Shown here: positions 6,335-63,837 of the stretch, piece by piece
How positions within the stretch are numbered: position 1 is the first letter of the stretch
How the letters are laid out: every line of letters starts with the position of its first letter
From: Ostreococcus lucimarinus
Taxonomy: Eukaryota
Strand: one strand, 5' to 3'
DNA: 64,000 bases
Assembly (NCBI GenBank): GCA_000092065.1
Contig: CP000598.1
Made by a program: the position numbers and the translations under genes
Notes under the pieces: model-generated
Databases searched by the model: none
Seen by the model: only the letters and a program-made list of their open reading frames with translations
What the model was told of the DNA's origin: nothing

Positions 6335-7362
6335 GAGCCACCCCTTGCGCGACGCCCGCGCGCTTCAGCGCGGCGCCGCAGTACGGATGGAACCGACGCG
6401 AGGTCTCGGGCGCTTCCCCGCGCGCGTTCACGACGTGCGTCCAGCGACTCTTCGTCCACGCCCCGCCCTTCGCTTCGCGCGCGTCGGTCGAGGGTTGGCG
6501 TCGATGATTTCTCGACGGATCGTCTTCATCCGTGCGTCCGTGAGGCACCGCTCGAACACGGCGTAGCGCTCTTTGGACGGATCGAACATGGCCGCGCCGT
6601 GTGAGGTGCACTGTTTCCCCTTGATCTCCGCCGCGCTCGCTCCCGCCGCGCGCGCGTGTCCAGACCCACGGCGTACGCGAGACGGCGCGTCGTCGCCGCG
6701 CTCGTCGGCTTCCACGCGTTCGGGAACCTGACGTGTTTGGGTAACCCACGAACGGCGCGCGCGGCGAGCGCCTCCAGGCGCGCGCGCCGCGCGGGAACTC
6801 TTCACCGTGCGCGCGTTTCCACTCGGCGAACACGCCGAGGGCGAGCGCGACTACGCGTCGACGGTGCGTTCCGCGAGTTCGCACCCGCGCCGGCGACGCC
6901 TGATCGTCTCGGCGCGCGATCGTCGCGGCATGGGACGCGTTGGAGGGCGGGGGTCGGGACGCGTCGCGGTTTCCCGCGCCGCGCGTCGCGCGTCGTCGGG
7001 TGCTGCGGGGACCGACCCCGCGGTTTTGTGCGAAATGAAATCGTTCGTCTAACCGTACTGCTGCGAGTAGTCTCGGTCGTTCAAGTAAAGGTGGCGCGCC
7101 CAGTGCTGGTCGGCCGGAAACACCACGCGCGAGGGGAGGGGCGGCTGAAAATTCGGTTTCTGAGGTATTCTCGAGCGCGTGGTTGTCCCTCCCGAGCGCG
7201 CGTTTCGCCGTGGAATCGTCCTTCGTCGAGTGCTCGTCGAAGCGTGACTCACCGTCGTCCGCTGACGTGGCGTCACGAGTCGATACGCGATTTCGCGGGT
7301 CACTCTCCCCGATTCGTGAACCGCCAAACGTAAATTAATATCTTTGCGCGCGAAAAAAGATC

Positions 7363-12387: not shown

Positions 12388-13344
12388 TCAAATCAGCGCG
12401 ACGCCAGGAGACCACGGAAAGCGTCCCGCGAATCGTCGCCGAGGACACGCGTCTAAATACGTCCAAAACGATTTGAGTGATTTCACCGTTGAGCTATATG
12501 ACGCGCGTTCGTTGAACGGATCCAGTGCTTGCCCCGTCGACCCGACGTCGTTTCGACACCCGTACGGATCGCGCGCGAACGCATCGCACGCTTTCGCTTC
12601 GCGCGTCGCCAGTTCGTTTTCGTTCACCGCCGCGGTACCGATGTAGGTCATATTGCTCCAGGAATACCCCATCGCGTCGAGATGAAGCTTTTCGAACCGC
12701 GCGCGCTCGACGTGAAACCCGACGACGGTGATCTTTGAAGGAAACTTTCGAGCGAGTTGAAAGAACCGACACACGCTGAATAACGCGTGCTCGAACCCGT
12801 CGTTCGCGTGTTCTTCCGTGAACGTCCTAGACTCGACCTTCGCGTCGACGCCGAACCAATCGTTCGCCCTGGCGACTTGCCAATACGAGCTCGCCCGAGT
12901 CATCACCGCGCCGGCGTCGATTGATTTTCCTCCACTGAAAACGAGCACTGCGTGTGGGTTCCTCGCTGCCTCGCGAACACCGATCTCGATGTGTTCGACC
13001 AGCGACCGTACGTATCCTTCCGACGACGTTTGATCGCGCTCTAAAGCCCAGTCGCCCGGGTCTTCCGCGGCTTTCGCGAAATCGCTACCCAAGTAAACCG
13101 CGCGCGCGGGAACGACGACGAGCTCGTCCACGTCCGTCACCGCGGGCACTATCTTCTTCTCCTGTGCGCTCAGTCGCATCACCGTGTGCGTGATCGCTGC
13201 TCGCGGCGCATGATTCGTCCTCCTGAGCGCTTCTATCGTGACGCAACACACGCACAGAAGAAACCAGAGCGAACGTTCGAGGTTAAGAATCCTCGTCGCG
13301 CGCTTCGCCCACATCCGAGCGTATCGAGTGAACGCATACGTCAC
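12388..13344 (-). CDS. DUF218 (YdcF/ElyC/SanA-like) domain protein
   Basis: 'VVPARAVYLGSDF...HAVLVFSGGKS...' resembles the DUF218 core (a conserved ...SGG... after a beta-strand). The N-terminus is hydrophobic. Confidence 0.4.
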   Translation of the reverse strand: MTYAFTRYARMWAKRATRILNLERSLWFLLCVCCVTIEALRRTNHAPRAAITHTVMRLSAQEKKIVPAVTDVDELVVVPARAVYLGSDFAKAAEDPGDWALERDQTSSEGYVRSLVEHIEIGVREAARNPHAVLVFSGGKSIDAGAVMTRASSYWQVARANDWFGVDAKVESRTFTEEHANDGFEHALFSVCRFFQLARKFPSKITVVGFHVERARFEKLHLDAMGYSWSNMTYIGTAAVNENELATREAKACDAFARDPYGCRNDVGSTGQALDPFNERASYSSTVKSLKSFWTYLDACPRRRFAGRFPWSPGVALI

Positions 13345-13543
13345 GCGATCGCGGACTCGCGATGCGTACGTCGACGCGTTCGGCGCCGCGACGTCGTCGA
13401 CTCGTCGGCGGACGCGCGCGCGTGTCCTTCGTCGCGCGCTGTGCAGGGCCGGAGTTTTTCACGCCCTCGGCTGCGTCAAACAAAAACCCGTCCTCCGAAA
13501 CACACCGGCGTCCTCACACCGCCGCGCTCGCGGCGTCGCCTCG

Positions 13544-15880
13544 ATGCGTCTGCGCGTCGCGTCGCTCTTCTCCGGCATCGGCGGTCTCGATCTCGGGCTC
13601 GAGCGCGCCGGACACGACGTGGTGTTGCGCGTCGAGCGCGACGCGCACTGTCGCGAGTTGCTTCGACGGCAATACCCCGACGGCGCGCTCATGGACGACG
13701 TCGCCGCCGTCATGCCGCGCGATCTCGACGGCGTCGATCTGCTCGCCGCCGGGTTCCCGTGCAACGATTGCTCGTTCGAAAACGCGGCGCGACCGGGTTT
13801 GGAACACGGCCGCGACACGCGTCTCGTGCGACACGTCTTTCGCCTGCTTCGCGAGAGACGCGTGGAGTGGGTGCTCCTGGAGAACGTCGTCGGGCTTTTG
13901 CGTTGGCACAGGCGGCGTCGTCGGAACGAGCGCCAGGGAGAGAACACGTCGCGGTCGCGCGATGCGCGTGCGCGGCCGCCGGCGATCGATCACATCGTCA
14001 CCGAATTCGAAAAACTCGGCTACCGCTGGGCGTATCGCGTGGTCGATTTGCTCGCCTTTGGCGTGCCGCACAAGCGCCGACGCGTCTTCATCGTCGCGAG
14101 CGCGCACGGCGACCCGCGAGACGTGCTTCTGAGTCAAGACTCGCAGTGTCAAGGCCGGTGCGAGACTTTCGCGGCGCACGCGCGCGTCCACCGCCGTCGG
14201 TGTTACGACTGCTTCAACGCGCCGCCGCGCGACGCCGCGACGGTCGAAGCCGTGTCCATCGACGTCGGCGAGAACAGACGACCGCCTCTGCGCGACATTT
14301 GCCAGTGCTTGACGACGTCGAACGGGCGGCGGACGTGCGTGGTGACGCGCGCGGCGAACGACGCGCGCGAGACGTCGACGACGCGCGCGCTCGCCGTCGA
14401 GGACGCCGAACGCCTGATGGGATTCGAGCCGGGGTACACCGCGTCGTGCTACCCGATCGCCGACGCCAACGGGCGCGCGCCGATGAGTTTCAACGTCGAC
14501 GCGCAAACGCGCAAACGGTTCGCGTTGTTGGGGCTCGCGTGCGCGGTGCCTCAGAGTGCGTGGCTCGGCGAGCGCCTGCGAAACCCGTACGCCGTCAAGT
14601 TTCCGTACGCCGCGCTGTGCGCGCCGTTCCGCCGCGCGTGTCCGGGCGGGGACGACGACGACCAGGAAGGCGCGTGGCCGCTCGCAGCGTACAACGTATT
14701 CGAGCTCGACGACGCGGACGAGCCGAGATGGAAAAGCCGCCGACGCGCGCCGAAGACGCTCTCGGAATCCCCCGTCGTGCGCGCGTTCGTGCCGCTGGGT
14801 GAGTTTTTGAAGTTTCAACGTCGCGCGCGGGACGTCGATCCCGAAACTTTGCGCACGTACGCGCGGCGACTCCGCGCGAGCGGCCACGACGACGTCGACG
14901 AGCTCGTGCGTCTCGCGTTGCTCGGCGACGAGCGACGCGATGGCAAGCGTCGGCGGATCGCGGCGCCGCACGTCGGTACTACCGTTCGTCGCGCCGAATC
15001 CGTCTGGTCGTCGAGCGACGACGAACGCGATGATTCCCGAGACGACGATGCGATGCCGACGTTCGGCGCGCGCGCGTGGGTGCGGTGGCGAGGCAAACGC
15101 GGCGACGTGGCGACGCGTTGGCCGTGTCTCGTGCTCGACGCGGGCGAAGATGGGGTGCGAGGCGTGACGACGCATCGCCACGTGGTATTTTTCGACGCCG
15201 CGCGTTCGCACGCGCGCGTCAGATCGACGGATATCGTCGGCCGATTTGGTGGAGACGACGACGACGGCGACAATATATCAGAACGCGCGGACATCGTCGG
15301 CGCGATCGAGCGCGCGAGGGTGTGGAAACGCGACGATCGAAATCACGAGTACGACCCGATCGCGTGGTCGTTTCGCGAACCGACGGCGTGTCTCGAGTGC
15401 GCAACGTGTCGCGAAGACGCGCCGCCCGCGGTGTCGACGCCCGATCGCAGTCGCGGCGGCAACGACGGTGTGTTGTCGCGAAGTCTTCGATCGAGCTTTG
15501 CGTCGGATTCAAAAACATCATCATCATCGAAGTGTCCGCAAGCGACGGAAATAATTCCTCGCGCGCGCCTCGGGCACGTCGGCGCGACGCTCGCGTTGCG
15601 CCGCGGCGACGCCGTCGGACGAAGACTGCGCGTGTTTTGGCCCATCGAAAACGCGTTTTTCGCGGGCACGATCGCGGCGTTCGACAAACAAACGTACACG
15701 TTTCGCGTCGATTACGACGACGGCGACGTCGAGGTGGCGTTCAAGCCGTGGATGGAGTCGGTGTGGCCGCTGAGGGGTGAAGATGAGTTCGCGACGTGTG
15801 GGGTGAAAACCCCTCGTGCGATCACACCATTCAATCAAAACACGCCAGAAATCTGCGAAGCACCAAAGACTCACTTTTAA
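13544..15880 (+). CDS. DNA (cytosine-5)-methyltransferase with C-terminal PWWP/Tudor-like reader domains
   Basis: Motif I is 'LFSGIGGLDLG', motif IV is 'GFPCNDCS' (catalytic Cys), motif VI is 'ENVVGL', and the C-terminal part of the catalytic domain is 'LMGFEPGY...LLGLACAVPQSAW'. After the domain come 'AWVRWRGKRGDVATRWPCLVLD' (PWWP-like) and 'FWPIENAFFAGTIAAFDKQTYTFRVDYDDGDVEVAF' (Tudor/Agenet-like). The track ORF starts at 13238, but motif I lies immediately after the ATG at 13544. Confidence 0.8.
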   Translation: MRLRVASLFSGIGGLDLGLERAGHDVVLRVERDAHCRELLRRQYPDGALMDDVAAVMPRDLDGVDLLAAGFPCNDCSFENAARPGLEHGRDTRLVRHVFRLLRERRVEWVLLENVVGLLRWHRRRRRNERQGENTSRSRDARARPPAIDHIVTEFEKLGYRWAYRVVDLLAFGVPHKRRRVFIVASAHGDPRDVLLSQDSQCQGRCETFAAHARVHRRRCYDCFNAPPRDAATVEAVSIDVGENRRPPLRDICQCLTTSNGRRTCVVTRAANDARETSTTRALAVEDAERLMGFEPGYTASCYPIADANGRAPMSFNVDAQTRKRFALLGLACAVPQSAWLGERLRNPYAVKFPYAALCAPFRRACPGGDDDDQEGAWPLAAYNVFELDDADEPRWKSRRRAPKTLSESPVVRAFVPLGEFLKFQRRARDVDPETLRTYARRLRASGHDDVDELVRLALLGDERRDGKRRRIAAPHVGTTVRRAESVWSSSDDERDDSRDDDAMPTFGARAWVRWRGKRGDVATRWPCLVLDAGEDGVRGVTTHRHVVFFDAARSHARVRSTDIVGRFGGDDDDGDNISERADIVGAIERARVWKRDDRNHEYDPIAWSFREPTACLECATCREDAPPAVSTPDRSRGGNDGVLSRSLRSSFASDSKTSSSSKCPQATEIIPRARLGHVGATLALRRGDAVGRRLRVFWPIENAFFAGTIAAFDKQTYTFRVDYDDGDVEVAFKPWMESVWPLRGEDEFATCGVKTPRAITPFNQNTPEICEAPKTHF

Positions 15881-24393: not shown

Positions 24394-24567
24394 TGCGAGC
24401 TATACCTTATAAATTGTGATCAATCGGGCCTAGTGCGTCGATAAGTGATGATGATTACAAGGAGCTATCATTGATTAGTTCATTAATGAGTGTTAACTCG
24501 TCAATTAGTCATCCTAGGTTAACTAGGGGAAGCTATACTTCATATTTTACTCTTCAGATTTCTAACA
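24394..24567 (-). mobile_element. solo LTR of a copia-like retrotransposon (5'-TG...CA-3') flanked by a 5-bp target-site duplication GTGTC
   Basis: 174 bp, about 95% identical to the LTR at 55885..56059 (shared 'caatcgggcctagtgcgtcgataagtgatgatgattacaaggagctat...ttcagatttctaaca'). GTGTC is present at 24389-24393 and at 24568-24572. Confidence 0.6.
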
Positions 24568-24687: not shown

Positions 24688-25674
24688 GTGAAGCCGTGCG
24701 CAAAAGTTCGGCGGTCGTCGATAGGTCTGGCAACGTCGGTCATGCGTTGGTTGAGGGGACGTGGTGTCAAGGCGATAATGTGCGTCGCCCTTGTCGCAGG
24801 TTTCGCCAAGGTACCAGATCTGCACGTCAATAAGTATACTATGACACAGACACTGCAAGGCGACGGCTTTGGTTCACAGTTTCAAAATATCACATCTACC
24901 GCGGCTGCTCTGCACGTCAATAAGTGTACTATGACACAGACACTGCAAGGCGACGGCTTTGGTTCACAGTTTCAAAATATCATATCTACCGCGGTTTTCG
25001 CTCAAACCTTGAACAAACACTTTTGCGTGACCCCTATCGAAAGCATGGAGCACAACTACGACAATCGCTCAACGTTCCTTCGAGAAGTCAGCGAACTGAT
25101 TAATTTACCAGTACTTTCAAGTCAAGAGGACATGGACATTGAAAAGTGCGAGGTTAAAAAAGGCTGGCTGGATAGCTACATAGTTCAGGAAGCAAATCAG
25201 TTGGACGTTCGTACAAAATTGGGTAACATTCGAAAGCAGTTCTTGGGTAACAAGCGCTCGTTGTCGGAACTTCGTAAACACGCTGCCGTGCACATCAGGA
25301 GGCAGAATTCTTTTGATAATCGAAACACTGTTTCTCATGATGAAGTCGTGTGCTTTGTGATGAGGGAAATTCTCACTCAAAACAGCAATATTCAGTTTCA
25401 TGTATTTAGCCAGGGCGATATTTCGGAGTTTTGGCGCTACCAGAACGATTCAAGAATCGTCCTACGTCTCGACGAACCCATCAACGTGACGTTCACTGAA
25501 ATGGTTGTCGCCAAAATTTTGGTCACAGCCACGTCGTCATTTAGCTATGCAGCAGCACTTCTCTCAGAGGGTGAGATATGGGCCCCAAGACCGTTCTGGC
25601 ACAACTACCCTTCCTTCTGGAAGACATATCAGCTTTCTCGTACATTGTCTAACTTTGAGACATGCCTACCATGA
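24688..25674 (+). CDS. GT11-like alpha-1,2-fucosyltransferase-like glycosyltransferase carrying an internal in-frame tandem duplication
   Basis: 'LQGDGFGSQFQNIISTAVFAQ' matches GT11 motif I (GGLGNQMFQYAFA), and the C-terminal 'ATSSFSYAAALLS' matches the (S/T)TFS..A motif. There is an N-terminal TM. Confidence 0.5.
   Translation: MKPCAKVRRSSIGLATSVMRWLRGRGVKAIMCVALVAGFAKVPDLHVNKYTMTQTLQGDGFGSQFQNITSTAAALHVNKCTMTQTLQGDGFGSQFQNIISTAVFAQTLNKHFCVTPIESMEHNYDNRSTFLREVSELINLPVLSSQEDMDIEKCEVKKGWLDSYIVQEANQLDVRTKLGNIRKQFLGNKRSLSELRKHAAVHIRRQNSFDNRNTVSHDEVVCFVMREILTQNSNIQFHVFSQGDISEFWRYQNDSRIVLRLDEPINVTFTEMVVAKILVTATSSFSYAAALLSEGEIWAPRPFWHNYPSFWKTYQLSRTLSNFETCLP
24821..25000. repeat. 2 x 90-bp tandem duplication inside the GT11-like CDS (in frame, duplicating motif I)
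   Basis: 'tgcacgtcaataagt[a/g]tactatgacacagacactgcaaggcgacggctttggttcacagtttcaaaatatca[c/t]atctaccgcgg' occurs twice, at 24821 and 24911. Confidence 0.8.
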
Positions 25675-40450: not shown

Positions 40451-40533
40451 CCCATCGAGTACTAATCAATGATAGCTACTTGTAATCATCATCACTTATT
40501 GACGCAGGCCCGATTGATCGCATAGTATTAGGT
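40451..40533 (+). mobile_element. truncated, degenerate LTR fragment of the copia-like family
   Basis: 'actaatcaatgatagctacttgtaatcatcatcacttattgacgcaggcccgattgatcgcatagtattaggtatagctcgca' matches the 3' half of the LTR at 55885..56059 in reverse orientation. Confidence 0.45.
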
Positions 40534-41006
40534 ATAGCTCGCATTTCGAAAATAATGTATGAGGGTAAAATAATGAATTTAATTAACGTCGACGTTTGTC
40601 GCGCCGTCGCGCGCCACTTCGCGCCGCGCGCGCGTCCGGGCGGCGCGGAGTCAACCGATGTTTCCGCGTATCGTGATATCCGACCGTTTAAGTTTGAATT
40701 CTGTGCGTGGGTGTTGACGGAACACGACCGTTGGAGCTCGATGGGCACGTTAACTTTTGGGCCAGATTCTGTCGCGTATGACGCACCCTCGCGCGCGCCG
40801 AAGCGCGTCTCCGACCGTGTCGACGGCACGGAAAGGTTGTAAGAAGGCTTCTCAGCGATCTTCAGCCTCGCTGGGAGGAGCAGAGGCAACGACGGCTCCC
40901 GCTTGCGACGACGAAGACTGGCGCGCTCAAGTGGCCAAAGATGCTCGTGAGGTTGCCGTTTCTTTGCTCGCGAACAAACGTCGCCGGGAGGTTTCTGTTT
41001 CTGATA

Positions 41007-49854: not shown

Positions 49855-50056
49855 CTACTGCCGAATTCTTTCAGAGCGGCGAGTAAAACCATCGCGCGAA
49901 CCAAGCGCGAACATCTTGATCGTCAGCGCTATCGACAGAAATTTCCATATTAGTCGACGTTGGGTGCTCAAAGTTTGAACACGTGAAACCAAAATTGAGG
50001 TCCGGTAGAAAGTTGTGAAGCAAAGCGTTCTCGGCAAGTACACCATTTTCGAGCAT
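49855..50056 (-). pseudogene. gene fragment paralogous to the middle of the 51001..53277 glycosyltransferase
   Basis: 'LLHNFLPDLNFGFTCSNFEHPTSTNMEISVDSADDQDV..RAWFARWFYSPL' aligns to 'LLHKLLSSHNFGFFCSNFMHPTVENLELSIDEEGNLVC...RRWLRDWFYGPI'. Confidence 0.5.
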
Positions 50057-51000
50057 CAGACTGAAATACGCCTGGAGATCGTACTCTGGCGGCGTTCTTC
50101 ATAGACACCTCGAGGTGCGTCAATGCGTCAGAGCTTCCCAGGCCGACGCTGAGTAGAACGTTTGTTGCACATCTCTCACCGCACGGACGTCCAAGCGCGA
50201 GATGTCCCGGTAGAACATGGAATGCGCGTTCTTCACCGCGCCAACGTTGCAGTTCCTGATATCTCCGTTCAAGGTACTCTTGTACTGAAACAAATCGCGC
50301 GTGTCATCCACCGCGCTCACGTCCCAGTTCGCGATCGGCACGCTCGACGACGCGCTCCCGCCGACGTCGCCCCCGTGGCGTCGCCGCCGAGACAGTTAGC
50401 GTCGGCGATCGCGAATATCAGCGACCAATACGTCATGAACGGCGACACGTACCTGCTCGCCGAGCTCCACGCCGTGCGTGCCCCTTCCGCGCGCGTCGTC
50501 CCGACGACGCCCGCGCCCGTGGGCACCGTCCGCATCCTCGTCCGCGAGAATCGCCGCCATTCGCGTTTCGACGCGTTCTCCTTCTTCGCGCGTCGCGCTC
50601 GCGCACCCGCGTCGTCGGCGTCGTAATCCCTCGTCGCACAGCGCGCGACGATCGGTGCCGCGCTCGGCGCGCGAACGACGCTCGCGCGCGCGCGGTTCTG
50701 GGGCTAAAGTTTCCACGTCGGTTTGGACGTTAGGCTCTCCCTCGAAGGTGCCATGGGTGTGTAGAGGGCGTTTGGGGCGCCGAAGGGGGATAACCGCCGT
50801 CACAAGGCGTGGGGACGTTCTCCGCGTCCGCTACGCACGACGCGCGCGAGATCATCTTCACCGCGCACCCGGATCGACGCACCGAGCGAGACGCGCGCCT
50901 CGCCGACACCCTCCTCTAAAACGGACCGCGACGGCTCTGTTTCGCGTGACGCTCCGCATTACGAGCGACCGCGTCCGCGGGGACGCGGCGCGCACGTCGC

Positions 51001-53705: not shown

Positions 53706-54743
53706 CTACGAGTTTAGGGAATTTTCCACGCCCTCAATACCACCATCGAAGCGAATGAATGCGAATTCGACGCACATTTTGTGCAATAGTGAATACTTGA
53801 TATTCGGCTCTTTGTGGAAAATGTAAAAGTTTTCGTCGTGAAGGCGTCGGAAGAAACGTTTCGCCACCGGCTCGCGCAAAGGGTCGAGCGCGCCGCGGCC
53901 GAAAAGTTGATCGCCGACGATCAGAGAGAGCCACGATTGATGTACTTCTTTCAAGTTCGAGTCAATCGTGCCCGCGTGTATTTCCACGAGCATTTCATCG
54001 ACGCGCACGTCGGCGTCGATCCAGCTGCCGTAAGTGCTCCATTCGCAGCCTTCGCAGTCAATTTTTAATACGTCTATCGTCCTTCCTTTGTGACCGAGCG
54101 CGACGACGACGTCGGCTAAACTTTTCAAATCGCTCCCATCGGGTTCGCGCGCGCCTCCTAATCCCCATGGTTGAAAGTGGACACCGCACGGTTTGTTTCG
54201 CGGGTTCGACACCGTGTGATCGAACACGTGTATTTCGCACGCGCTCGACACGTCCCGCATGATCGCTTCTTCGAAACTAAAGTCATCGAAACTTCCGACG
54301 CTATATATCAAACCGTCCGCCCCCCGCGCGCGCAGACGGTTCGGGTCGCACAAACACTTCCCACCCTCGCCAGCTGGACCGACGCGCTCTTCGCGCGCGC
54401 ACGTCACGGCGGGCTCCACGTTGTCTTGGTACCAACCGTCGGCTCTCTGCGTACCTCCGCGCGAGACGGTGTCGAAGAGCGCGTAGCGCTTGAGCTTATC
54501 GGCGTTGATCGCGTTGATCGCGCGATCGAAGGCGGCGTCGACGTCTTTTGCGATCGGCGCCGTCGAACGCGTCGGCTTCGGTTGTGCGCACGAGTGCTGT
54601 TCTTCGACCCGAGCACGCACGGGTTTGGCGAGGTGATACCGTGTGAACAGGGTGAAACACGCCGCGAAAAGCAGCAACGCGCTGATTTCTCGCGCGCGCT
54701 TCGATCGTGCGAGGACGGAGCCGTTCGAAGCGAGACGAATCAT
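53706..54743 (-). CDS. FkbM-like methyltransferase, type II membrane topology
   Basis: The anchor is 'ALLLFAACFTLF'. 'LIYSVGSFDDFSFEEAI' and 'IDVLKIDCEGCEWSTY' match the FkbM LKIDvEG motif. Confidence 0.45.
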   Translation of the reverse strand: MIRLASNGSVLARSKRAREISALLLFAACFTLFTRYHLAKPVRARVEEQHSCAQPKPTRSTAPIAKDVDAAFDRAINAINADKLKRYALFDTVSRGGTQRADGWYQDNVEPAVTCAREERVGPAGEGGKCLCDPNRLRARGADGLIYSVGSFDDFSFEEAIMRDVSSACEIHVFDHTVSNPRNKPCGVHFQPWGLGGAREPDGSDLKSLADVVVALGHKGRTIDVLKIDCEGCEWSTYGSWIDADVRVDEMLVEIHAGTIDSNLKEVHQSWLSLIVGDQLFGRGALDPLREPVAKRFFRRLHDENFYIFHKEPNIKYSLLHKMCVEFAFIRFDGGIEGVENSLNS

Positions 54744-54900
54744 GAAACGAACGACGAATACTGCGGGAAGAGAAGTGAGGTGAGTGATTACGCACGTGAC
54801 GAGAATGATACACTATGATGCGATTTCGAGACTACATCACTACACGTTGAGCTAGAATCTACGTACGATCGATCGCGCCAAATGGTTTCCACCGACTTCT

Positions 54901-55779
54901 TCACGACGCATAAATGTCCCCTCCCCGCGACATTTCGCTGTAGTGCTTCGTCGCTCGAGGCAGCTTAAAGTGCAACAACACCTCCTCGTCTGTGCGCACG
55001 TCCGCGACGCGTCGACTCGCCGCGCTCAACGCGTCTCTATGTTGCACGCGCCAACGGAACTCGATCGAATCTCCATCCGCGATGCTTTCGTAGAGCAACG
55101 CGGGCCCGGTGTAGTACAACGAATGATAAAAGTGTTGTCGGTCGGCGACGTTCGCGGCGATTTTGTCCATCGCGCGCGCGAAAACATCCAACCCGGGGAC
55201 CGCCACCATGAACGCGTTCCACACTTGTTTCGGCCCGCCCGCGAGTTTGTACACGCGTCTGTCGTACACGAACAACGCGTCGTGGCGCATATCGTGGGTC
55301 AATTCGTCGAGAGACTTCACCAGTAAAATGTCATCGTCCATCCAAGCGCCGCCTTCGGTGTACAGAATGCAGTACCGCAACAAATCAGCCTTGAACGCGA
55401 GTGGTTTTAGTGCTCTGTACGCGCGTAAATATTTTTTGCAGTTCGTTTCTATATACTCGGCTCCGCCGTACACGTCGTACGTCTTCAACGTCCACGTCGG
55501 GTTGAGTCGCGTGGTGATTTTTAACGGGAACGACGAATCGTTCGGTAACGTCAGGGTGTGCAACTTGCGAGGTAAAGGCTTTGTGTCAGTCGTCGTTGTC
55601 CATAACACCGGTACTGGTACGTCGTTCCAATGACTTTGTAAACCTCGCCAAAATGCTTGAAGCAAAAGTATACTTGCTATGGTGACGAATAGTACGAACG
55701 CGAACGTTCGTGTAGTCTTGCGACGAATATAGCGTGAGACGATGGTAAACGACTCGTTCCAAATGCCTTCGCCTTTCAT
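54901..55779 (-). CDS. glycosyltransferase family 32 (Och1/alpha-1,6-mannosyltransferase-like, DxD)
   Basis: 'KADLLRYCILYTEGGAWMDDDILL' is the GT32 signature (kaDllRy.iLy.yGGiYlDtD). The anchor is 'FAFVLFVTIASILLL'. Confidence 0.75.
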   Translation of the reverse strand: MKGEGIWNESFTIVSRYIRRKTTRTFAFVLFVTIASILLLQAFWRGLQSHWNDVPVPVLWTTTTDTKPLPRKLHTLTLPNDSSFPLKITTRLNPTWTLKTYDVYGGAEYIETNCKKYLRAYRALKPLAFKADLLRYCILYTEGGAWMDDDILLVKSLDELTHDMRHDALFVYDRRVYKLAGGPKQVWNAFMVAVPGLDVFARAMDKIAANVADRQHFYHSLYYTGPALLYESIADGDSIEFRWRVQHRDALSAASRRVADVRTDEEVLLHFKLPRATKHYSEMSRGGDIYAS

Positions 55780-55884
55780 ATCTCGCGAGGAGAAATTTGT
55801 GACGAAGAAGCCCTCGTTCGCGCGAAACGTTTCGTTCAGAGTGTTGCGGAATCCGCCGGCTTGCCTTATTAAAGGCTCGTTACA

Positions 55885-58563
55885 TGCGAGCTATACCTTA
55901 TATGATTGTGAGCAATCGGGCCTAGTGCGTCGATAAGTGATGATGATTACAAGGAGCTATGATTGATTAGTTCATTAATGAGTGTTAACTCGTCAATTAG
56001 TCATCCTAGGTTAACTAGGGGAAGCTATACTTCATACTTTACTCTTCAGATTTCTAACACACCTCCTTAGCTTTCTCTAGTCTGAGGGCTTATCAATCAA
56101 TACCTTTGAAAGGTTGGATTTCCTCACTTTCGACCTTCTCGAGATATTCTTGAAATGTGTGCAGAGCGTCACTCTTCACCATACCTTCACTCAACCTCTG
56201 GTTGATGAAGTCTCGTATGTCCTTTGAAGATATATGACTTAACATTACGTTGAAGTGATTAGAACACTCGTGAACGTCTGTTGTACCTGAAAAGTTCTTC
56301 TTGTTCGGCAATATCTTTGTCAACATATCGGCTAGATTGTATGACGATCCGATGTTGAATGGCTGTATAATCCCTTCTCTGTGAGCATAATGTTGGAGCC
56401 AAGCGTATCTTATTTCCATATGCTTGTTTGACTTTGACGACATCGTCTCCATCGCTTGTCGAATGGCTGTCGTGTTGTCACAAAACAATGGTACCCTGGA
56501 AAGTTTGAACCCAAGTTCTCTAAGTAACAAGATTTGAAAGAATAAATCTTTCGCGGCTTCATACATTGCCATAAACTCTGCTTGCGCTGAACTCGTGGCT
56601 GGTATTCCTTGCAGTTTGCTCTTCCAATTGGTAGGGCCGCATGAAAAAGATATATACCCCGATGTGGATTTTCTTCCGCATCTATCTTTCGAATTTAAGG
56701 ATAACTTTTGGCCTGCCCAATCCGAGTCTGTAAATCCTGCAAGTCTCACTATACCATTGCATTCAGCACCGTTGTAGGTTAATGGAATATTGGGGTTCCT
56801 CTTGAGATATCCAACTGCTCTGCATAGAGCGCTAAATTGTTTATGCGTTGGGTTACTTGCTACTCTTCCAGCTAGGCTGCATACCACAGCAAGATCCGGG
56901 CGAGTAGCTGTATTGAACCAATTCAGACTTCCCAACACTTGTTGATATGTTGTCCGTTTCATCCTGTCTACTGCATCTGTGTCATCCTCCTTGGCGAGAA
57001 CAAACATATCTGATGGTAGTAACGGTGAATCGCGAGCATTGATGTCTTGCACTGGGCATTTTGCTAGGAATTGCGCAATCGAATATTCTTGGCTCAGTGT
57101 GTAGCAGTGCTTCTCTAATCTGTGCATATTAATGCCGTTATACACTTTGCACTGTTCAAATTGCGATACTTTGTAGGTGTCTGAAAACTCGGTGTGGAAA
57201 CGTTCAACTTTTTCATTGTCCTGAGCCAATATTAGGAGATCATCCACCAAGACTGAAATGATCAGAAATGGTTTACCATGATTCATCTTAACAAATAAGC
57301 AGCTATCTTTGGCTAGTTGGGTTAAACCAATAGACCTTAGTGTCTTGGTTACATGAAGATACCAACATCTTCCAGCTTGCTTTGTTCCATATAGAGGTCT
57401 CTTTAATTTGTAGACTACTCCTTTCGGAAGCGGATGAGATCGTGGTGCTTTGATGAATATATCATCTAAAAGCTCTCCTTGAGTATAAGCTTGGGATACA
57501 TCTATCGTAAAGATGTCCCATCCTAAGATTGCCGCAATATTGATGAGTATCCTAAACGTGGTCATGGAAGCAACAGCACTAAATGTGTCGTGGTAGTCCT
57601 TCAACCAAACTTGGGTGAATCCTTGCACTACCAATCTAGACTTAAGGGAACCATCTGGTTTTACCTTATCTACCCATTTGGATCCACAAATATTTGCATC
57701 TCCGGCTTCATCAATACTGACCTCCATTAATGTGGTTTCGAGCAATCCATTGAGCTCTTTTGCTCTGCTCTCTGAGAAATCCACACTTGACTCATCAATA
57801 ATTTTACCGTATTCTTCGCCTTTTGCGACGGCTGTGGCTAGCACACTGTGTGCTGCCCTATTTGTCGAATCAGCGTTATTTAGCGCAGGATTCAATTTTA
57901 CCGTTTTATCGCCATAACTCCCGCCCTGAAGCTGGATATGCGAATACTTAGAGAACTTGGGTTCAAACTTTCCAGGGTACCATTGTTTTGTGACAACACG
58001 ACAGCCATTCGACAAGCGATGGAGACGATGTCGTCAAAGTCAAACAAGCATATGGAAATAAGATACGCTTGGCTCCAACATTATGCTCACAGAGAAGGGA
58101 TTATACAGCCATTCAACATCGGATCGTCATACAATCTAGCCGATATGTTGACAAAGATATTGCCGAACAAGAAGAACTTTTCAGGTACAACAGACGTTCA
58201 CGAGTGTTCTAATCACTTCAACGTAATGTTAAGTCATATATCTTCAAAGGACATACGAGACTTCATCAACCAGAGGTTGAGTGAAGGTATGGTGAAGAGT
58301 GACGCTCTGCACACATTTCAAGAATATCTCGAGAAGGTCGAAAGTGAGGAAATCCAACCTTTCAAAGGTATTGATTGATAAGCCCTCAGACTAGAGAAAG
58401 CTAAGGAGGTGTGTTAGAAATCTGAAGAGTAAAGTATGAAGTATAGCTTCCCCTAGTTAACCTAGGATGACTAATTGACGAGTTAACACTCATTAATGAA
58501 CTAATCAATCATAGCTCCTTGTAATCATCATCACTTATCGACGCACTAGGCCCGATTGCTCAC
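55885..58563. mobile_element. truncated Ty1/copia retrotransposon rearranged into a palindrome: the RT core is flanked by roughly 640-bp inverted copies of its own 3' end (RNase H C-terminus + PPT + LTR)
   Basis: Arm A, 55885..56526, is the reverse complement of arm B, 57948..58563. The arm B ORF 57938..58378 encodes the same 146 aa as the C-terminus of the minus-strand pol ORF. The LTR TGTTAG...GCTCGCA sits at 55885..56059, with the PPT-like 'gctaaggaggtg' next to it. Confidence 0.8.
56093..58015 (-). CDS. copia-type pol fragment (reverse transcriptase + RNase H). gag, PR and IN are absent
   Basis: 'YVDDLLILAQDNEKVE' is RT motif C (the YVDD box). 'ATSSAQAEFMAMYEAAKDLFFQILLLRELG...CDNTTAIRQA' is the copia RNase H. 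The first roughly 25 codons of the ORF are the antisense of arm B and are not genuine. Confidence 0.8.
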   Translation of the reverse strand: MSNGCRVVTKQWYPGKFEPKFSKYSHIQLQGGSYGDKTVKLNPALNNADSTNRAAHSVLATAVAKGEEYGKIIDESSVDFSESRAKELNGLLETTLMEVSIDEAGDANICGSKWVDKVKPDGSLKSRLVVQGFTQVWLKDYHDTFSAVASMTTFRILINIAAILGWDIFTIDVSQAYTQGELLDDIFIKAPRSHPLPKGVVYKLKRPLYGTKQAGRCWYLHVTKTLRSIGLTQLAKDSCLFVKMNHGKPFLIISVLVDDLLILAQDNEKVERFHTEFSDTYKVSQFEQCKVYNGINMHRLEKHCYTLSQEYSIAQFLAKCPVQDINARDSPLLPSDMFVLAKEDDTDAVDRMKRTTYQQVLGSLNWFNTATRPDLAVVCSLAGRVASNPTHKQFSALCRAVGYLKRNPNIPLTYNGAECNGIVRLAGFTDSDWAGQKLSLNSKDRCGRKSTSGYISFSCGPTNWKSKLQGIPATSSAQAEFMAMYEAAKDLFFQILLLRELGFKLSRVPLFCDNTTAIRQAMETMSSKSNKHMEIRYAWLQHYAHREGIIQPFNIGSSYNLADMLTKILPNKKNFSGTTDVHECSNHFNVMLSHISSKDIRDFINQRLSEGMVKSDALHTFQEYLEKVESEEIQPFKGID

Positions 58564-58798
58564 CTTAGTCGGCTTAAGTATTATTCATATTTTCGGCTAT
58601 CTCTTCGTCGGCCTAACAGCGAAATTTCCCTCTTTTGCACGTCCGGTTCGCCCAGCTCAGCCGCTTAACGAGTTCATTTCAACTTGAAATTTTCAAGGTA
58701 AAAAAGGCAACCTAAACGCTGTACTCAAGGTCCAACCTTAGTGTGCACCTAGACGTGTACCCACCGGTTCTCCTCCCTTCATCTCTTCCTCGCCGTTT

Positions 58799-60196
58799 TT
58801 GAAGTGTCACGCGCCGTCACTTAAGACGGCGATGCCCCGCCAGTTCCGTCTTCCGCCTCGCTCTGAAAGTTTGCTATTTAGTAGTGACTGTGCAAGAGGG
58901 GCACATGCCACAAGCCACGGTGGTAGACGAGGGGTGGGCCGACATAGACAAAATCACTGCGTAGTCCTCGCGTGGCGTCTTCTAACTCTCACTTGCGCGA
59001 TTTCCGTGTGTGCTTTGTTGGTCGCTCGCGGCCTGGAAAACATTCGTTTGTACCGTGCTGGGAACTTTGTTAGCTCTTTGGCACACGTATTGGACAGGGC
59101 AGTCGGTGTGGAGAAACTCGAGGAACTTCAGAAAGTGTGCACGCGGAGTACGGCGATAGAGGAGACATACCTGGTGACTGGCGCAGCTGGTTTTATCGGA
59201 AGTTACGTCGCACGAGCGCTCAACGAGCGTCGTGTACGAGTCGTTGGTTTAGATAACATCAACGGCTACTACCCGAGGGCTTTGAAGAGAAATCGGATTT
59301 CAAAGCTCGCAGAGGTTGGCGTGCACGTGGTGGAGGCGGACCTCAATGACTCTTTGACACTCAGGGGGATTTTAGATACGTGTAGAGTGACGACAATCGT
59401 ACACTTGGCAGCACAAGCGGGCGTGAGATATGCAGTGAAAAATCCAGGGTCGTATGTTCACTCAAATGTCGCAGGTTTTGTTTCACTGCTCGAAGAAGTA
59501 GTGAAGACAAGTCCTATACCAAGAGTGATCTTTGCCTCGTCGTCGAGTGTATATGGGTTGAACACAAAGCTTCCGTTTAGCGAATCGGATGTAACTGATT
59601 CGCCAGCGTCACTATACGCCGCAACCAAAAAAGCGAATGAACTCTTGGCGCGCACATACAATCATATTCATGGTGTTGCATTGACGGCGCTGCGCTTTTT
59701 CACAGTCTATGGGCCGCACGGTAGACCTGATATGGCGTACTACTCGTTCGCGAATAATATCAGGGCAGGGCAACTTGTGAATATATTTAGAAGTGCCGAT
59801 GGCAGTGAACTTGCACGTGACTTTACATACATAGATGATATTGTTCGTGGTATCATTGCAGCATGCGATACAAGCGAGGCTAGTGGGAAGAAAGCAGATG
59901 GTTCGAACCCACCTTTTAGGGTATATAATCTTGGCAACACGCATCCGGTGACGGTGAGCGACTTCGTCTCGAAACTTGAACACGCCCTTGGCATGGTGGC
60001 CAAGCGCAACTACTTGCCCATGCCCAAGACTGGGGATGTCCCTTACACACATGCCAACATCAGTGCTGCTGAACGTGACTTGTCGTACAAACCCAGAGTT
60101 GATCTTGATACTGGTCTTCAATATTTCGCGGAATGGTACTTAGGTTACTATGATAGTGGCGCGAACAGTGAGGACTTCAAGTACATACCACTGTGA
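58799..60196 (+). CDS. UDP-glucuronate 4-epimerase (GAE-type, membrane-anchored)
   Basis: 'YLVTGAAGFIGSYVA' is the GxxGxxG. 'YAATKKANE' is the YxxxK pair. 'FFTVYGPHGRPDMAYYSFANNI' matches the GAE signature FFTVYGPWGRPDMAYFFFT. The N-terminal TM is 'VVLAWRLLTLTCAISVCALLV'. Confidence 0.8.
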   Translation: MKCHAPSLKTAMPRQFRLPPRSESLLFSSDCARGAHATSHGGRRGVGRHRQNHCVVLAWRLLTLTCAISVCALLVARGLENIRLYRAGNFVSSLAHVLDRAVGVEKLEELQKVCTRSTAIEETYLVTGAAGFIGSYVARALNERRVRVVGLDNINGYYPRALKRNRISKLAEVGVHVVEADLNDSLTLRGILDTCRVTTIVHLAAQAGVRYAVKNPGSYVHSNVAGFVSLLEEVVKTSPIPRVIFASSSSVYGLNTKLPFSESDVTDSPASLYAATKKANELLARTYNHIHGVALTALRFFTVYGPHGRPDMAYYSFANNIRAGQLVNIFRSADGSELARDFTYIDDIVRGIIAACDTSEASGKKADGSNPPFRVYNLGNTHPVTVSDFVSKLEHALGMVAKRNYLPMPKTGDVPYTHANISAAERDLSYKPRVDLDTGLQYFAEWYLGYYDSGANSEDFKYIPL

Positions 60197-60259
60197 TGCA
60201 TCTGATCTGAAGAACCGACCACGAGATTTGGAGATGAACGCTTTAGCTTCCAATAAAAT

Positions 60260-61267
60260 CTAAAAGCATGACATGTCTCGCTGCCCAGATACATCGCACT
60301 CCTGTTGAAAGTATTTCTCCCAAAGCTCTTTGTGAGGTGTGTATCGACACCAAGGTTTCGACTGACCTGACCAATGGAGAACTCTCGCTTCATTCAGTAC
60401 CGACGCTCTAAGCCCTTTTTTGTAGCCGACTCCATCAACATTCCAATGCGATGGAATTGACTCGAAGGAATCGCCAAACACTAGCAACAAGGGAGGCTGA
60501 CTTCCATGGCTATATAATTTCGACACTGAGTTCATCTTCAACCAAGTCTCTACAGTTGAAGTAATTCTCTTACGCCGCCAGCTTTCAAGGTCGATTAGGA
60601 GTACCCCGGCATTGAAAGAATGCATTTTTTCACGAAGACCTGACGATTTTACCGCCGCATTTGAGAAATTGAGCAGACTACCGAGGGGGACACTTCGCTT
60701 CACAGCAGCAATGACAGATGTTGAAGACGAACGTAAATTTGCGTCATGTAACCTGCATATGTCACCTTTGACAATAATGTCAGTATCCAGATAGACTACT
60801 TTCTGGACGTCTGATAATATTTCTGCAAAGTAGAAGCGGGCATAGTTGAAAGCGTTTTGCAGCCTCCACTCTTTTCTGCTGTGTACAGTTATATTAGCTC
60901 GAATCATATCTTTGGAAAATTCGTGTAGTTCCCAGATGAAGGGTATTGCTCGGCTGTAGCAATTCAATTGCACACTAGCATCAGTGAGAGCATCGCGTGC
61001 AGTGAAGATGTGAAACCGTATCCGATGAGGTGACGCGGTGGCCGAAAGCACTGAACTGATCACAGGCCCTAACGTAAATAACTGAGTAGGATCGCAGGCA
61101 AATGCTATGTGAACCAGGGACTGAGCGTTCGGTATCTTTCTCCGAGGAAACACACGTATTAGAACGAACACGAAAAGCAAAATTCGACATATCGTGATGC
61201 TCGTGCGTGCGACTCTCACCGTATTGTTGAACCTAATAGAGGGGCGCAACATGTATGACAGTTTCAC
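60260..61267 (-). CDS. glycosyltransferase family 8, GATL/GAUT-like (putative galacturonosyltransferase)
   Basis: 'NYARFYFAEILSDVQKVVYLDTDIIVKGDI' is the DxD motif. 'FNAGVLLIDLESWRR' and 'ARVLHWSGQSKPW' match the plant GATL/GAUT GT8 core. The anchor is 'ICRILLFVFVLI'. Confidence 0.8.
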   Translation of the reverse strand: MKLSYMLRPSIRFNNTVRVARTSITICRILLFVFVLIRVFPRRKIPNAQSLVHIAFACDPTQLFTLGPVISSVLSATASPHRIRFHIFTARDALTDASVQLNCYSRAIPFIWELHEFSKDMIRANITVHSRKEWRLQNAFNYARFYFAEILSDVQKVVYLDTDIIVKGDICRLHDANLRSSSTSVIAAVKRSVPLGSLLNFSNAAVKSSGLREKMHSFNAGVLLIDLESWRRKRITSTVETWLKMNSVSKLYSHGSQPPLLLVFGDSFESIPSHWNVDGVGYKKGLRASVLNEARVLHWSGQSKPWCRYTPHKELWEKYFQQECDVSGQRDMSCF

Positions 61268-62204
61268 GTCAGGTTTGACGTTTCAAGTCGTCCACTGCTG
61301 TAGCCGAACCATGCTGAGCTCAAGTCCACGAGCGTGGCCGAATCTCGCCTGAACGTAGTTTCGCTTTAGATGTCTTTCCAAACACTGCTTTACTAGAAGC
61401 CTTCGACACCGTCAGATTCTGCGGTCGATGTAGTAGAAGATCGGAGCGAACAAATAGAAAAGAAAGGGCAATATAAGAGGGTGCGCAACATTCAGTTCAT
61501 TGAATTCATTCAATTGAACCAATCAATTGACCTTTCAACGTTTTGTCTCTCACCTCGGATCCACCTGGATCTGACGTCGTGAACAGATCGTTCGGATTCT
61601 CGTGGGTGTCGGCTTCGAAGGGCATGAACCCTATCGATAGTGCGCCACCCCGAGCTGTGTTGTACCTCATGTATGTTAGATTTCTCAGTTTACGCTCGGC
61701 GGCATAGCGTCATACCGTTCTTTATAGAGCCACTTGTAGATTTAATGTTGTCTGTCCCTTACAATGATGTACACCCTGAGCATGTTGAATGTGCCAGATA
61801 GGGTCAATCACATCGCTCAAGAAGCTAGTACAGAACGTTGATCATGATGAGCCGGAAGTATATTTTTCTGGTGAAGTGATATCACTGGGCAGTATCACTG
61901 GCGGCAAGCACAGTGCTGAATGGTCAGTACCCTTCGGAGAAACTCTAGATATATATTTTAATTCGCGATTCTAACGTTGCCGTGGGAAGTCTTGAATTTT
62001 CAGTCTCTATACCGCTCGCATCGATCCAGGAGCGTTTATGGCGGTTGTAAATGTGCCACTTTCTGGTGGTCTTGTCAACAAGGATCCATGTTTGGCTGCA
62101 AAACCCAAGCACAGTCACTGTCCGATCACCGTCCGATATCCCATCTAGCGTCTGGTATCCTCCTTTGACAAGCGCAGAAACGTTTCTCGTAGACCGTTGT
62201 CTAT

Positions 62205-62621
62205 TTATGAAGCCATTTCCATGGCGACTGACAGCATGACAAATCTGGAGTACTGGCTTTTAAGTCCATTCATGGGCATAAACACCAACAGCTCGCCGAG
62301 TGGAATTTTATAAGGCACGGTCATCCAAAACGGTTTATCTTCAGCCTGCATGTATCTCAAGCCCACACGTATACCATCAGAGTTTGCTTTCGGACCGACG
62401 TCGCGCAGCAGCTCTCTCGCCCACGTTGACAGATCGAAGCGTCTACTATCCGTGACTTGGTTTGTGAACGTTTGAGAGTCGACTCGAACCCGTCGATCGC
62501 TTTGAGCAGCTCGTGCGTACTCTCGCACCACCAGCAACGCGCTCACGACGGTGAAAATCTTAGCAGCGGCAATATATTTTCGAGTTGCGCACATTTTCTG
62601 GGCTGCTGTGACGAGTGACAT
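62205..62621 (-). CDS. hypothetical secreted or membrane protein (possibly the first exon of a longer gene)
   Basis: A 138-aa ORF with the signal-anchor-like 'IAAAKIFTVVSALLVV'. No family recognised. Confidence 0.25.
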   Translation of the reverse strand: MSLVTAAQKMCATRKYIAAAKIFTVVSALLVVREYARAAQSDRRVRVDSQTFTNQVTDSRRFDLSTWARELLRDVGPKANSDGIRVGLRYMQAEDKPFWMTVPYKIPLGELLVFMPMNGLKSQYSRFVMLSVAMEMAS

Positions 62622-62640
62622 CAGAATCTACAGGCGAAGC

Positions 62641-62700
62641 TCGCACCGTCTAAGTGCGTCGATAAGTGATGTCGATTACGAGTATGAGGGATAATGACTC
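62641..62700 (-). mobile_element. diverged LTR-related fragment
   Basis: 'ctaagtgcgtcgataagtgatgtcgattacgag' is similar to the 'ctagtgcgtcgataagtgatgatgattacaagg' of the copia-family LTR. Confidence 0.3.
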
Positions 62701-63177
62701 ATGAGATGAACCCAATCCCGCATTACACTGGTGCTAATGTTAGATAATCTATGAGAAACCTTGGGTTTATGAGTCGCGATGGTTGCCGCGCGAGCTTGTC
62801 CGATGCTGACTCATACACGCTAAGTCTATATGTAGGTCTAGGTCGTGTAGTATAGACATAGGCGTTAGAACCACTATAATACGGGATTGGCTTCATTCAT
62901 GTGCTTATCTCTCATCACATGCCATGGGATTTTGACTCGTTCAGAGCAACATCAGTAGGGTTTCAGTGACCGTTCATGACTCAATAAATCGTTGACCAGT
63001 CATAACTCGCCAACAGGGACTGTGCCGAGACGCCGAGCTCCCTGCGTCGCCATCGCGGCAGACGTCGCCTCCCCGCGCGACGACGGCGGGGGGGGGACGG
63101 CGCCAACGCGGCGCGGGACGCCGTCGCTGCGACGTGAGAGTCGCGACGACTCGTCAAACCCGGCCGCGACGTGATAT

Positions 63178-63837
63178 ATGCAGCCGGAAGATGCCGGGGA
63201 AGGGGTGACGGTGCCCTCCCAGGTTGGCGATGACGCGCTCGGAATCGTCCCCGTCGACGAGTACGAGACGGTGTTTTCGTTTCCAACCGTCGGAAAGGAC
63301 TCTGAGCTGTGTGTTACGCGATGTCACGGGTTCTGGCTGACATTTTACGTGGACGATACTCGCTCTGTCAGTGGCCAAGGCCCGCGAGCGAACAAAACCA
63401 AGTACGCCAGGAGCATGCGAGCTTTCAAGGTGCGAGCTTCCAAGCGCGATCCGCCGAAGTTTTTCGTATCGACACCGCCTGCGGGATTGTTCTCACATCG
63501 AGATATCGTTTGGCAATGTGATGTTCAGTGGCCTTACGAGAAAAGCGCGAGTAATTGGCTGCACGCCGTGATCCCGGCGGAGAGGTTGCTAGATTTCCGA
63601 CGCGGCGTGCAGTGCGACGCCGCCACAGAGTTCCGCGTTTATTCTAGATACAAGAAAGGGAGGGGAACAAACAGCGTGGGGTCATTATACACGAATATAA
63701 CCATCTGGCATTGCTTTTGTGGTCCTGAAGACCATTCGGTTGATGCCAAGGAAAAGTTTGCCAAGCTCTGCAGCGGGAAGGCGAAGCGCATCTCGAGAAA
63801 GGTGGGCTGTCAATGTCGTTTAGGGTTTAGGGTTTAG
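63178..63837 (+). CDS. hypothetical protein, 3'-truncated by the telomere (the in-frame stop is supplied by the telomeric repeats)
   Basis: A 219-aa ORF of unknown family. The frame reads into (TTTAGGG)n as ...LGFRV* with no native stop codon or 3' UTR. Confidence 0.35.
   Translation: MQPEDAGEGVTVPSQVGDDALGIVPVDEYETVFSFPTVGKDSELCVTRCHGFWLTFYVDDTRSVSGQGPRANKTKYARSMRAFKVRASKRDPPKFFVSTPPAGLFSHRDIVWQCDVQWPYEKSASNWLHAVIPAERLLDFRRGVQCDAATEFRVYSRYKKGRGTNSVGSLYTNITIWHCFCGPEDHSVDAKEKFAKLCSGKAKRISRKVGCQCRLGFRV

Follow-up and report, generated by a model that had tools for sequence, protein, structure and literature searches.

A truncated Ty1/copia element with an inverted duplicate of its own 3' region near a telomere of the Ostreococcus lucimarinus small outlier chromosome

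Results and discussion

An inverted repeat between a glycosyltransferase and an epimerase gene

The stretch of 64,000 nucleotides analysed here (contig CP000598.1; hereafter the window) represents the telomeric end of chromosome 18 (chr18), the small outlier chromosome of Ostreococcus lucimarinus CCE9901. Between a glycosyltransferase gene on the left and a gene for an NAD-dependent epimerase/dehydratase on the right, it contains the remains of a Ty1/copia retrotransposon (positions 55885-58563), a part of which is present a second time in inverted orientation. The inverted repeat is composed as follows:

55908-56526, minus strand: left arm, taken as the template copy; joined without a break to the remainder of the element and to the final 23 bp of its long terminal repeat (LTR)
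56527-57944, minus strand: spacer of 1418 nt, with the reverse transcriptase (RT) and the N-terminal half of RNase H
57945-58563, plus strand (sense): right arm, i.e. the inverted duplicate, with the C-terminal half of RNase H, the stop codon, the polypurine tract (PPT) and LTR positions 1-152 (58412-58563)
57944/57945, no strand: inner junction (J1), at which the integrase-RT linker is joined to antisense RNase H sequence; microhomology at 57945-57950
58563-58564, no strand: outer junction (J2), at which LTR position 152 is joined to unique DNA upstream of the epimerase gene

A repeat scan of positions 54000-60500 yielded this single inverted repeat and no direct repeats. The arms (55908-56526 and 57945-58563) are 619 nt each and 100% complementary, both in the scan and in a direct string comparison, and they are separated by 1418 nt of unique sequence. 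The complementarity stops at both arm ends, where the adjoining sequence gives 12/60 and 13/60 matches, i.e. the level expected by chance. Every arm comprises 431 nt of RNase H coding sequence, 36 nt that hold the stop codon and the polypurine tract, and 152 of the 175 LTR nucleotides. When the region is folded as single-stranded DNA, all arm positions (619/619) pair with their mirror partner, at a minimum free energy of -970 kcal/mol. The inverted copy of the copia 3' end is thus confirmed as a genuine feature of the window sequence.

The copia remnant

The part of the element that precedes the duplication consists of an open pol fragment and one complete LTR, and a solo LTR of the same family is found elsewhere in the window:

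56093-57944, minus strand: uninterrupted pol fragment of 616 codons plus stop, from the integrase-RT linker through RT and RNase H
57017-57700, minus strand: RT domain (RVT_2), residues 106-333 of the open reading frame (ORF) at 56093-58015
56060-56092, minus strand: untranslated stretch from the pol stop codon to the LTR; contains the polypurine tract AGAGAAAGCTAAGGAGG and is conserved in all related copies
55885-56059, minus strand: complete 3' LTR of 175 bp (sense TGTTAG...CTCGCA) with TG...CA ends; borders on host DNA at its outer end, on the side of the glycosyltransferase gene
24394-24567, minus strand: solo LTR, 97% identical to 55885-56059, with the 5-bp target-site duplication (TSD) GTGTC

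The minus-strand ORF at 56093-58015 matches the Pfam family RVT_2 with an E-value of 1.2e-43 (149.9 bits, as against a cut-off of 31.6), and the copia-type RNase H motifs DSDWAG, AQAEF, CDN and ADMLTK could be read in it by eye; of these, only the C-terminal two (CDN and ADMLTK) fall within the arm. No PDB sequence was matched by the pol fragment. The limits of the LTR were set from the TSD-flanked solo LTR at 24394-24567, recovered by a BLAST comparison of the region with the whole window, and from an alignment with the LTRs of four related metagenome loci (L005, L006, L010 and L009; all related loci are given by such numbers below). The combination of TG...CA ends with a TSD was found for two solo LTRs, namely that of the window (GTGTC) and one at L054 (CAATT). 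Two further observations concern LTR-like sequence in the window: a partial fragment at 40461-40544 is 86-89% identical to the family LTR, and a 90-bp tandem repeat of two copies (97% match; 24819-24994) lies some 250 bp from the solo LTR.

In the right arm the LTR is without its last 23 bp, positions 55885-55907 being unduplicated. Since the arm stops 23 bp inside the LTR, its outer limit is not a natural, integrase-made element end, and neither an integrase-type end nor a TSD is found at the right LTR. The left copy is regarded as the template because the open 616-codon pol frame and the complete LTR end are both continuous with it. The window copy is without 5' LTR, gag, protease and integrase, and no direct LTR pair exists within 54000-60500. 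It is a truncated remnant of a Ty1/copia family member and, judged from its sequence, would be unable to transpose.

A preliminary description of this locus had reported a perfect inverted copy of the element's own last part, with the C-terminus of RNase H in it, in an element of which only RT-RNase H and the 3' LTR remain and which is therefore not a normal LTR-LTR element. The repeat scan and string comparison agree with this on all counts except the limits: the palindrome itself stands, but the right arm begins at 57945 and not at 57948, and the left arm at 55908 and not at 55885. Accordingly, the duplicated part does belong to the 3' region but does not include the true end of the element, as the copy ends 23 bp before the LTR terminus.

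Relatives of the element and their rearrangements

Protein searches recovered relatives of the pol fragment at 84-93% identity in marine metagenomes (the closest relatives overall being 84-98% identical), and a scan of metagenome contigs gave 50 loci, several of which are 95-100% identical to the window copy. Near-identical copies of the arms are among these (99.4% at L014, 99.2% at L020, and 176/176 positions for the LTR of L031). An essentially complete element of about 5.5 kb is present at L009, with an LTR, a 420-aa gag that has a CCHC knuckle, a 1266-aa pol and a second LTR, and L006 has an open frame of 1342 aa for protease, integrase, RT and RNase H (PR-INT-RT-RH). The protease motif DSGAS stands at the N-terminus of pol in the intact relatives, and integrase precedes RT (rve at residues 217-337 and RVT_2 at 728-955 in L009; 208-329 and 804-1031, respectively, in L006). 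Projected on the pol of L006, J1 corresponds to about residue 711, which is some 380 aa past the integrase core and 93 aa ahead of RVT_2. The comparison with intact members therefore implies that the window copy lost about 3.4-3.5 kb, i.e. the 5' LTR, gag, protease and integrase.

The family resembles the Ty1/copia elements of the outlier chromosomes of Mamiellales, with which it shares RVT_2, the PR-INT-RT-RH order in the intact relatives, 175-bp LTRs with TG...CA ends, a 5-bp TSD and a site on the small outlier chromosome with glycosylation genes as neighbours; the window copy differs from them in that an inverted 3' part is found in place of 5' LTR, gag, protease and integrase. Inverted instead of direct repeats are also a property of DIRS-type retroelements. 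However, a DIRS-like architecture was rejected, because the intact relatives have a DDE integrase (rve) and direct LTRs and show no tyrosine recombinase architecture; moreover, the repeat described here includes coding sequence, is truncated at one end and is a one-off rearrangement.

Several relatives are rearranged themselves. L005, which is 98% identical to the window copy, contains a 69-nt inverted copy, at 100% identity, of a segment located 877 nt downstream (1450-1518 and 2396-2464); the insertion replaces about 30 nt in the C-terminal region of integrase and is a small-scale analogue of the window event. In L010 (protein P0166) some 120 aa from the start of RT are duplicated directly in tandem, such that VAKGDDYSKVIDES...ILGWDI occurs twice in an otherwise open pol frame of 1204 aa. 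The loci L042-L045 represent a subfamily of deletion derivatives, probably non-autonomous, in which the equivalents of window positions 57702-57482, 56302-56068 and 55960-55885 are joined. One of these, L045, matches the subtelomeric repeat of the window over its positions 163-1684, up to the first bases of the telomere array (window 62299-63821), and hence appears to lie near a chromosome end; beyond this match come about 1 kb of other DNA, the copia derivative and then a paralogue of the glycosyltransferase (81% identical).

A different copia subfamily (about 85% identical) is found at the orthologous glycosyltransferase locus of an environmental relative (L008 1987-2286 and L011 7587-7840), where a 3' LTR that is cut off at about position 145-148 stands directly against a complete LTR in inverted orientation. 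The arms of that structure are only 94% identical, which argues that no assembly fold-back is involved at those two loci. L002, a Tara contig, has a copy from the same subfamily whose LTR is interrupted at about position 139-141, where antisense protease-gag sequence is attached (positions 3526 and 1745); the 5' end of this copy is truncated, with a 44-nt duplication beside a GT25 gene, and the same left junction occurs in L034 and L035.

Flanking genes and the position of the LTRs

The two genes between which the element is located are the following:

54901-55779, minus strand: glycosyltransferase that has a DXD sugar-binding region; starts (ATG) at 105 nt from the left LTR and is co-oriented with it
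58832-60196, plus strand: NAD-dependent epimerase/dehydratase; starts (ATG) at 268 nt past J2 and is co-oriented with the right-arm LTR

The epimerase ORF is identical at 344/344 residues to XP_001422311.1 of O. lucimarinus CCE9901, which is encoded on a record of 149,386 bp. Further ORFs nearby in the window encode glycosyltransferases, methyltransferases, sugar epimerases and dehydrogenases, which is the gene content described for small outlier chromosomes (PMC3491373). In the case of the glycosyltransferase, the orthologous contig L008 could be aligned with the window at 95.8% identity over 1588 nt (97.5% over the first 890 nt). A stretch of about 210 nt upstream of this gene is conserved in L008 and L045 and is absent from the window, and therefore host DNA must have been lost as well. 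In total three different copia insertions (window, L008 and L045) were encountered upstream of orthologues or paralogues of this one gene, and a Ty1/Copia element of about 5 kb has been described beside a hexosyltransferase gene in O. tauri (bioRxiv 10.1101/2025.04.21.649811).

This arrangement appears to extend to the family. Of 19 distinct sites, 16 (both window arms among them) have the end of a copia LTR at 16-376 nt ahead of a co-oriented ORF (binomial p = 0.002); the sites behind this pattern include L005, L006, L010, L013, L015, L016, L019, L023, L026/L031, L048 and the window positions 55885 and 58563. Among ten downstream ORFs scanned, five had Pfam matches, namely one GT25, three methyltransferases and one NeuB. 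The pattern suggests either insertion that is targeted at promoters or selection for read-out from the LTR. Both window LTRs point outward to co-oriented genes of sugar metabolism, at 105 and 268 nt. It is nevertheless doubtful that the palindromic remnant has been kept as a bidirectional promoter cassette that drives the glycosyltransferase and the epimerase, and that the family as a whole provides mobile oriented promoters for the glycan- and methyl-modifying genes of the hypervariable outlier chromosome.

The two junctions and a proposed fold-back origin

Sequence at the inner junction points to the way in which the duplicate may have been made. All ten related copies that are intact across the J1 point read ...AAGTA/TTCGCATATCC there, and six of the ten, the closest relatives among them, have TAAGTA. 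The window reads ...CTCTAAGTA/TTCGCATATCC, with RNase H sequence in antisense to the left of the junction. As judged from these relatives, and not from an ancestral allele, the inverted microhomology at J1 amounts to 5-6 nt (TACTTA on the plus strand; TAAGTA in the element sense), for which the chance probability is 0.0046 in the case of at least 5 nt and 0.0013 in the case of at least 6 nt. The same layout is seen in sequenced human junctions of the fold-back type, where the single-copy spacer measures 766-70,466 bp and the inverted microhomology 2-8 bp (PMC3907307). A fold-back or snap-back origin therefore fits the combination of J1 microhomology and a unique spacer of 1.4 kb.

The outer junction could be traced in separately assembled data. 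A contig of the Logan collection, L004 (run SRR1179203), is identical to window 58535-62328 (100%, zero mismatches) and spans J2, from which it follows that the inverted, truncated LTR really adjoins the epimerase gene. The contig starts 29 nt inside the right arm, as would be expected for a de Bruijn break if the LTR has two different continuations in the reads.

We propose that a resident element broke internally, that the break was repaired by fold-back synthesis primed at the microhomology and that the product was then joined to distal DNA, and we assign to this account a probability of roughly one in two. The glycosyltransferase and epimerase genes, which are transcribed divergently, would once have been separated by a full-length copia element of about 5.5 kb in minus orientation. 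Had this element suffered a double-strand break or a collapsed fork in the integrase-RT linker, a plus-strand 3' end ...TACTT(A) would have been left. About 1.4 kb behind that end lies (T)AAGTA (56521-56526), with which it could have paired by folding back, either within its own strand or on the sister chromatid. Extension leftwards over some 614-619 nt would then have copied the C-terminus of RNase H, the polypurine tract and LTR positions 1-152 in reverse, i.e. the right arm, whereupon the new end would have left its template and been joined to the distal piece of the chromosome at 58564. The 5' LTR, gag, protease and integrase (the 3.4-3.5 kb noted above) and some adjacent host DNA would have been lost in the process. 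The copying is presumed to have been host repair synthesis of the type of microhomology-mediated break-induced replication (MMBIR) or of polymerase-theta snap-back, with the events in about the order given.

Because the right arm ends inside the LTR, one complex event can account for both junctions, and fold-back repair is the most economical account, with two steps (one insertion and one complex repair). It would place the locus with fold-back inverted duplications (Hermetz et al. 2014, PMC3907307), with MMBIR and fork stalling and template switching (FoSTeS), and with polymerase-theta snap-back. What these have in common with the window is a duplicate with a single-copy spacer (1.4 kb here and 766-70,466 bp in human), inverted microhomology at the junction of spacer and duplicate (5-6 nt and 2-8 bp, respectively) and, as to the fold-back junctions, a position near a chromosome end. 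The existence of intact family members (L009 and L006) and the small inverted copy in L005 also speak for this account. Small outlier chromosomes are reported to change via large deletions, duplications and translocations, with 4 nt of microhomology at one fusion site (PMC13390643).

The main rival is a pair of insertions of the same family, head to head in the divergent promoter region and one for each gene. A deletion by microhomology-mediated end joining at the 5-6 nt of microhomology would then have removed both 5' parts, giving J1, and a small deletion of the last 23 bp of the right LTR with its flank would have given J2. That the right arm lies 268 nt from the epimerase ATG, which is just where the 16/19-site pattern would place a fresh insertion, favours this history, as do the three separate copia insertions upstream of glycosyltransferase orthologues or paralogues; moreover, copies 98-100% identical to the arms circulate in metagenomes, so that identity over 619 nt is possible. 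Yet it takes four events (two insertions and two deletions) as against two for fold-back, it leaves the truncated right LTR, with neither integrase-type end nor TSD, unexplained, and it makes the identity at 619/619 positions a matter of coincidence or of later gene conversion. We consider such a history unlikely, though by some way the first of the alternatives.

The snap-back may also have been made by the element's own enzyme. In that case a nascent minus-strand cDNA, which starts (5') at the U5 terminus (55885) and has the polarity of the window plus strand, would have reached the integrase-RT linker and primed itself at the 6-nt microhomology; the product would then have been captured at a chromosomal break, or attached by integrase at one end and by end joining at the other, and a full-length element would never have been on site. 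Polarity and topology agree with this, since the inverted copy lies 5' of the template in the element sense, and the left end is a perfect LTR terminus. The family is, in addition, rich in variants of the template-switch type (the inverted insertion of L005, the RT duplication of P0166/L010 and the deletion derivatives L042-L045), and the LTR junctions at about 139-141 (L002) and 145-148 (L008/L011) come near the position 152 used here. A self-primed copy should, however, extend to the 5' end of its template (full U5 plus primer), whereas the right arm stops 23 nt before it. A host deletion is needed anyway, as about 210 nt upstream of the glycosyltransferase are missing in comparison with L008 and L045, and the complete inverted LTR that abuts the truncated one in L008 weakens the idea of a hotspot at a fixed RNA end. 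This scenario, with a self-primed cDNA and its capture without any resident element, is in our judgement rather improbable. The related suggestion that the arm end marks the R/U5 boundary, i.e. the 3' end of the RNA, was set aside as unproven: realignment resolved L008/L011 into a complete inverted LTR beside a truncated one, and the last 25 nt or so of the LTR simply vary between subfamilies.

Several points weigh against fold-back repair itself. For a snap-back of the polymerase-theta type, whose templated insertions are typically much shorter, 619 nt of templated synthesis followed by rejoining to the distal arm is long. The structure also departs from the classical fold-back inversion, whose outcome is a terminal deletion, a dicentric chromosome or a translocation; here a tract of only 619 bp is followed by distal unique genes, the subtelomeric repeat and the telomere, and neither a terminal deletion nor a dicentric or breakage-fusion-bridge sequel is found in the window. 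The right-arm LTR is at the family's usual place upstream of a co-oriented gene, as would suit an independent second insertion. Finally, J1 was not retrieved elsewhere: look-ups of the exact products of two J1-spanning ORFs (Logan and ENA gene products), of the arm-contig product and of seven guessed spacer-contig products were empty, a 36-mer over J1 was absent from JGI metagenomes, and a 30-mer over J1 was absent from GTDB genomes and IMG/VR. These negatives are weak, as the look-ups require exactly guessed contig ends and a strain-private allele would reach environmental collections only by luck; a 30-mer over J2 was likewise absent from GTDB genomes. A dicentric chromosome that subsequently broke was considered as a source of J2 as well and is unlikely, for this requires a break at a distance of 619 bp from the fold.

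The failure to find J1 in any Logan or ENA gene product, JGI metagenome, GTDB genome or IMG/VR entry would also fit an artefact of assembly or cloning, in which J1 is a chimeric join and the RT fragment and the inverted LTR are in reality separated by other sequence; fold-back chimeras indeed typically appear as inverted repeats of 100% identity. Against this, J2 is spanned by the separately assembled Logan contig that starts 29 nt into the arm, the 5-6 nt of overlap are too short for an assembler to join on, J1 bears a biological signature, chr18 of CCE9901 is reported at the same 149 kb, and the negative J1 searches are weak evidence. We regard an artefact as improbable.

The preliminary description had envisaged a snap-back or fold-back origin and had asked for an assembly artefact to be excluded. 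The former fits the anatomy of J1, with the two head-to-head insertions as a rival; on the latter, J2 is confirmed by the separately assembled contig, whereas J1 was found in no other data set. The structure is most probably a real inverted templated duplication, and probably a recent one; it adds a further example to a known kind of rearrangement and does not represent a new kind of element.

Potential consequences of the inverted repeat

In yeast, inverted Ty1 pairs and Alu inverted repeats are familiar as fragile sites (Lobachev laboratory; PMC10164571); like the window arms, these are identical transposon segments in inverted orientation, able to anneal into a hairpin or fold-back. In duplex DNA the capacity for rearrangement decreases with the spacing of the repeats, and widely spaced pairs are potent only in long single-stranded DNA, for instance after telomere uncapping (PMC10164571). 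In comparison with the yeast fragile sites, the spacer of 1.4 kb puts the window structure in the class with low instability in duplex DNA and high instability only within long single-stranded DNA (PMC10164571), so that the potent fragile site of the preliminary description is an overstatement. The closeness to a telomere that it mentioned is real: the repeat (TTTAGGG)n starts at 63818, 5254 bp past the right arm, and continues for 26 copies to the end of the window. By analogy, it is conceivable that a condition of long single-stranded DNA arises at 5.3 kb from a telomere. If the region were single-stranded the arms could anneal, and recombination between them could flip the spacer; the inverted repeat thus predicts flip-flop of the spacer, or fold-back rearrangements following telomere damage.

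The Mu killer locus of maize is an inverted partial duplication of MuDR that makes hairpin RNA, and the window structure has in common with it that an inverted partial duplication of a transposon has arisen naturally. Retention of the repeat as a source of hairpin RNA that silences the copia family can be pictured in the same way, as read-through from the LTR or a neighbouring gene would yield a 619-bp stem of double-stranded RNA (the pairing given above was computed for single-stranded DNA). The host lineage differs, however, in that the genes for RNA interference (Dicer and Argonaute) appear to be lost in O. tauri (PMC9871001), and the exact structure was not found in JGI metagenomes, GTDB genomes or IMG/VR. 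A silencer of the Mu killer type was rejected on the apparent loss of these genes, and we hold it to be highly improbable.

Chromosomal setting

Chromosome 18 of O. lucimarinus has been characterized as a small outlier chromosome of 149 kb with 53% GC (PMC3491373), and the GC content of the window is 52.3%. GC-rich islands of 64-69% GC occur at 5000-7000, 13000-15000 and 50000-51000, the rest of the window being at about 45-58%; an ORF with C-5 DNA methylase, mono-CXXC and Tudor-like domains (13238-15880) sits in such an island. Distal to the epimerase gene, the subtelomeric repeat at 62299-63817 is matched by five metagenome loci (L045 at 99.7%, L042, L024, L028 and L043), with all of the matches stopping at 62299. 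The Logan contig L004 ends at 62328, i.e. 29 nt past that position. Within the subtelomeric repeat lies a 30-nt LTR-like piece (62653-62682).

Conclusions

Taken alone, the inverted duplication described here is one more transposon scar. It does provide an example, at nucleotide resolution, of the remodelling of a small outlier chromosome in a picoalga, and one that took place within a young and active copia family. The small outlier chromosome of Ostreococcus is reportedly linked to virus resistance (PMC13390643), and it is known for rapid deletions and translocations that have been tied to that resistance. If it were true that the outward-pointing LTRs drive the flanking genes of sugar metabolism, the family would supply portable promoters to the most strain-variable genes.

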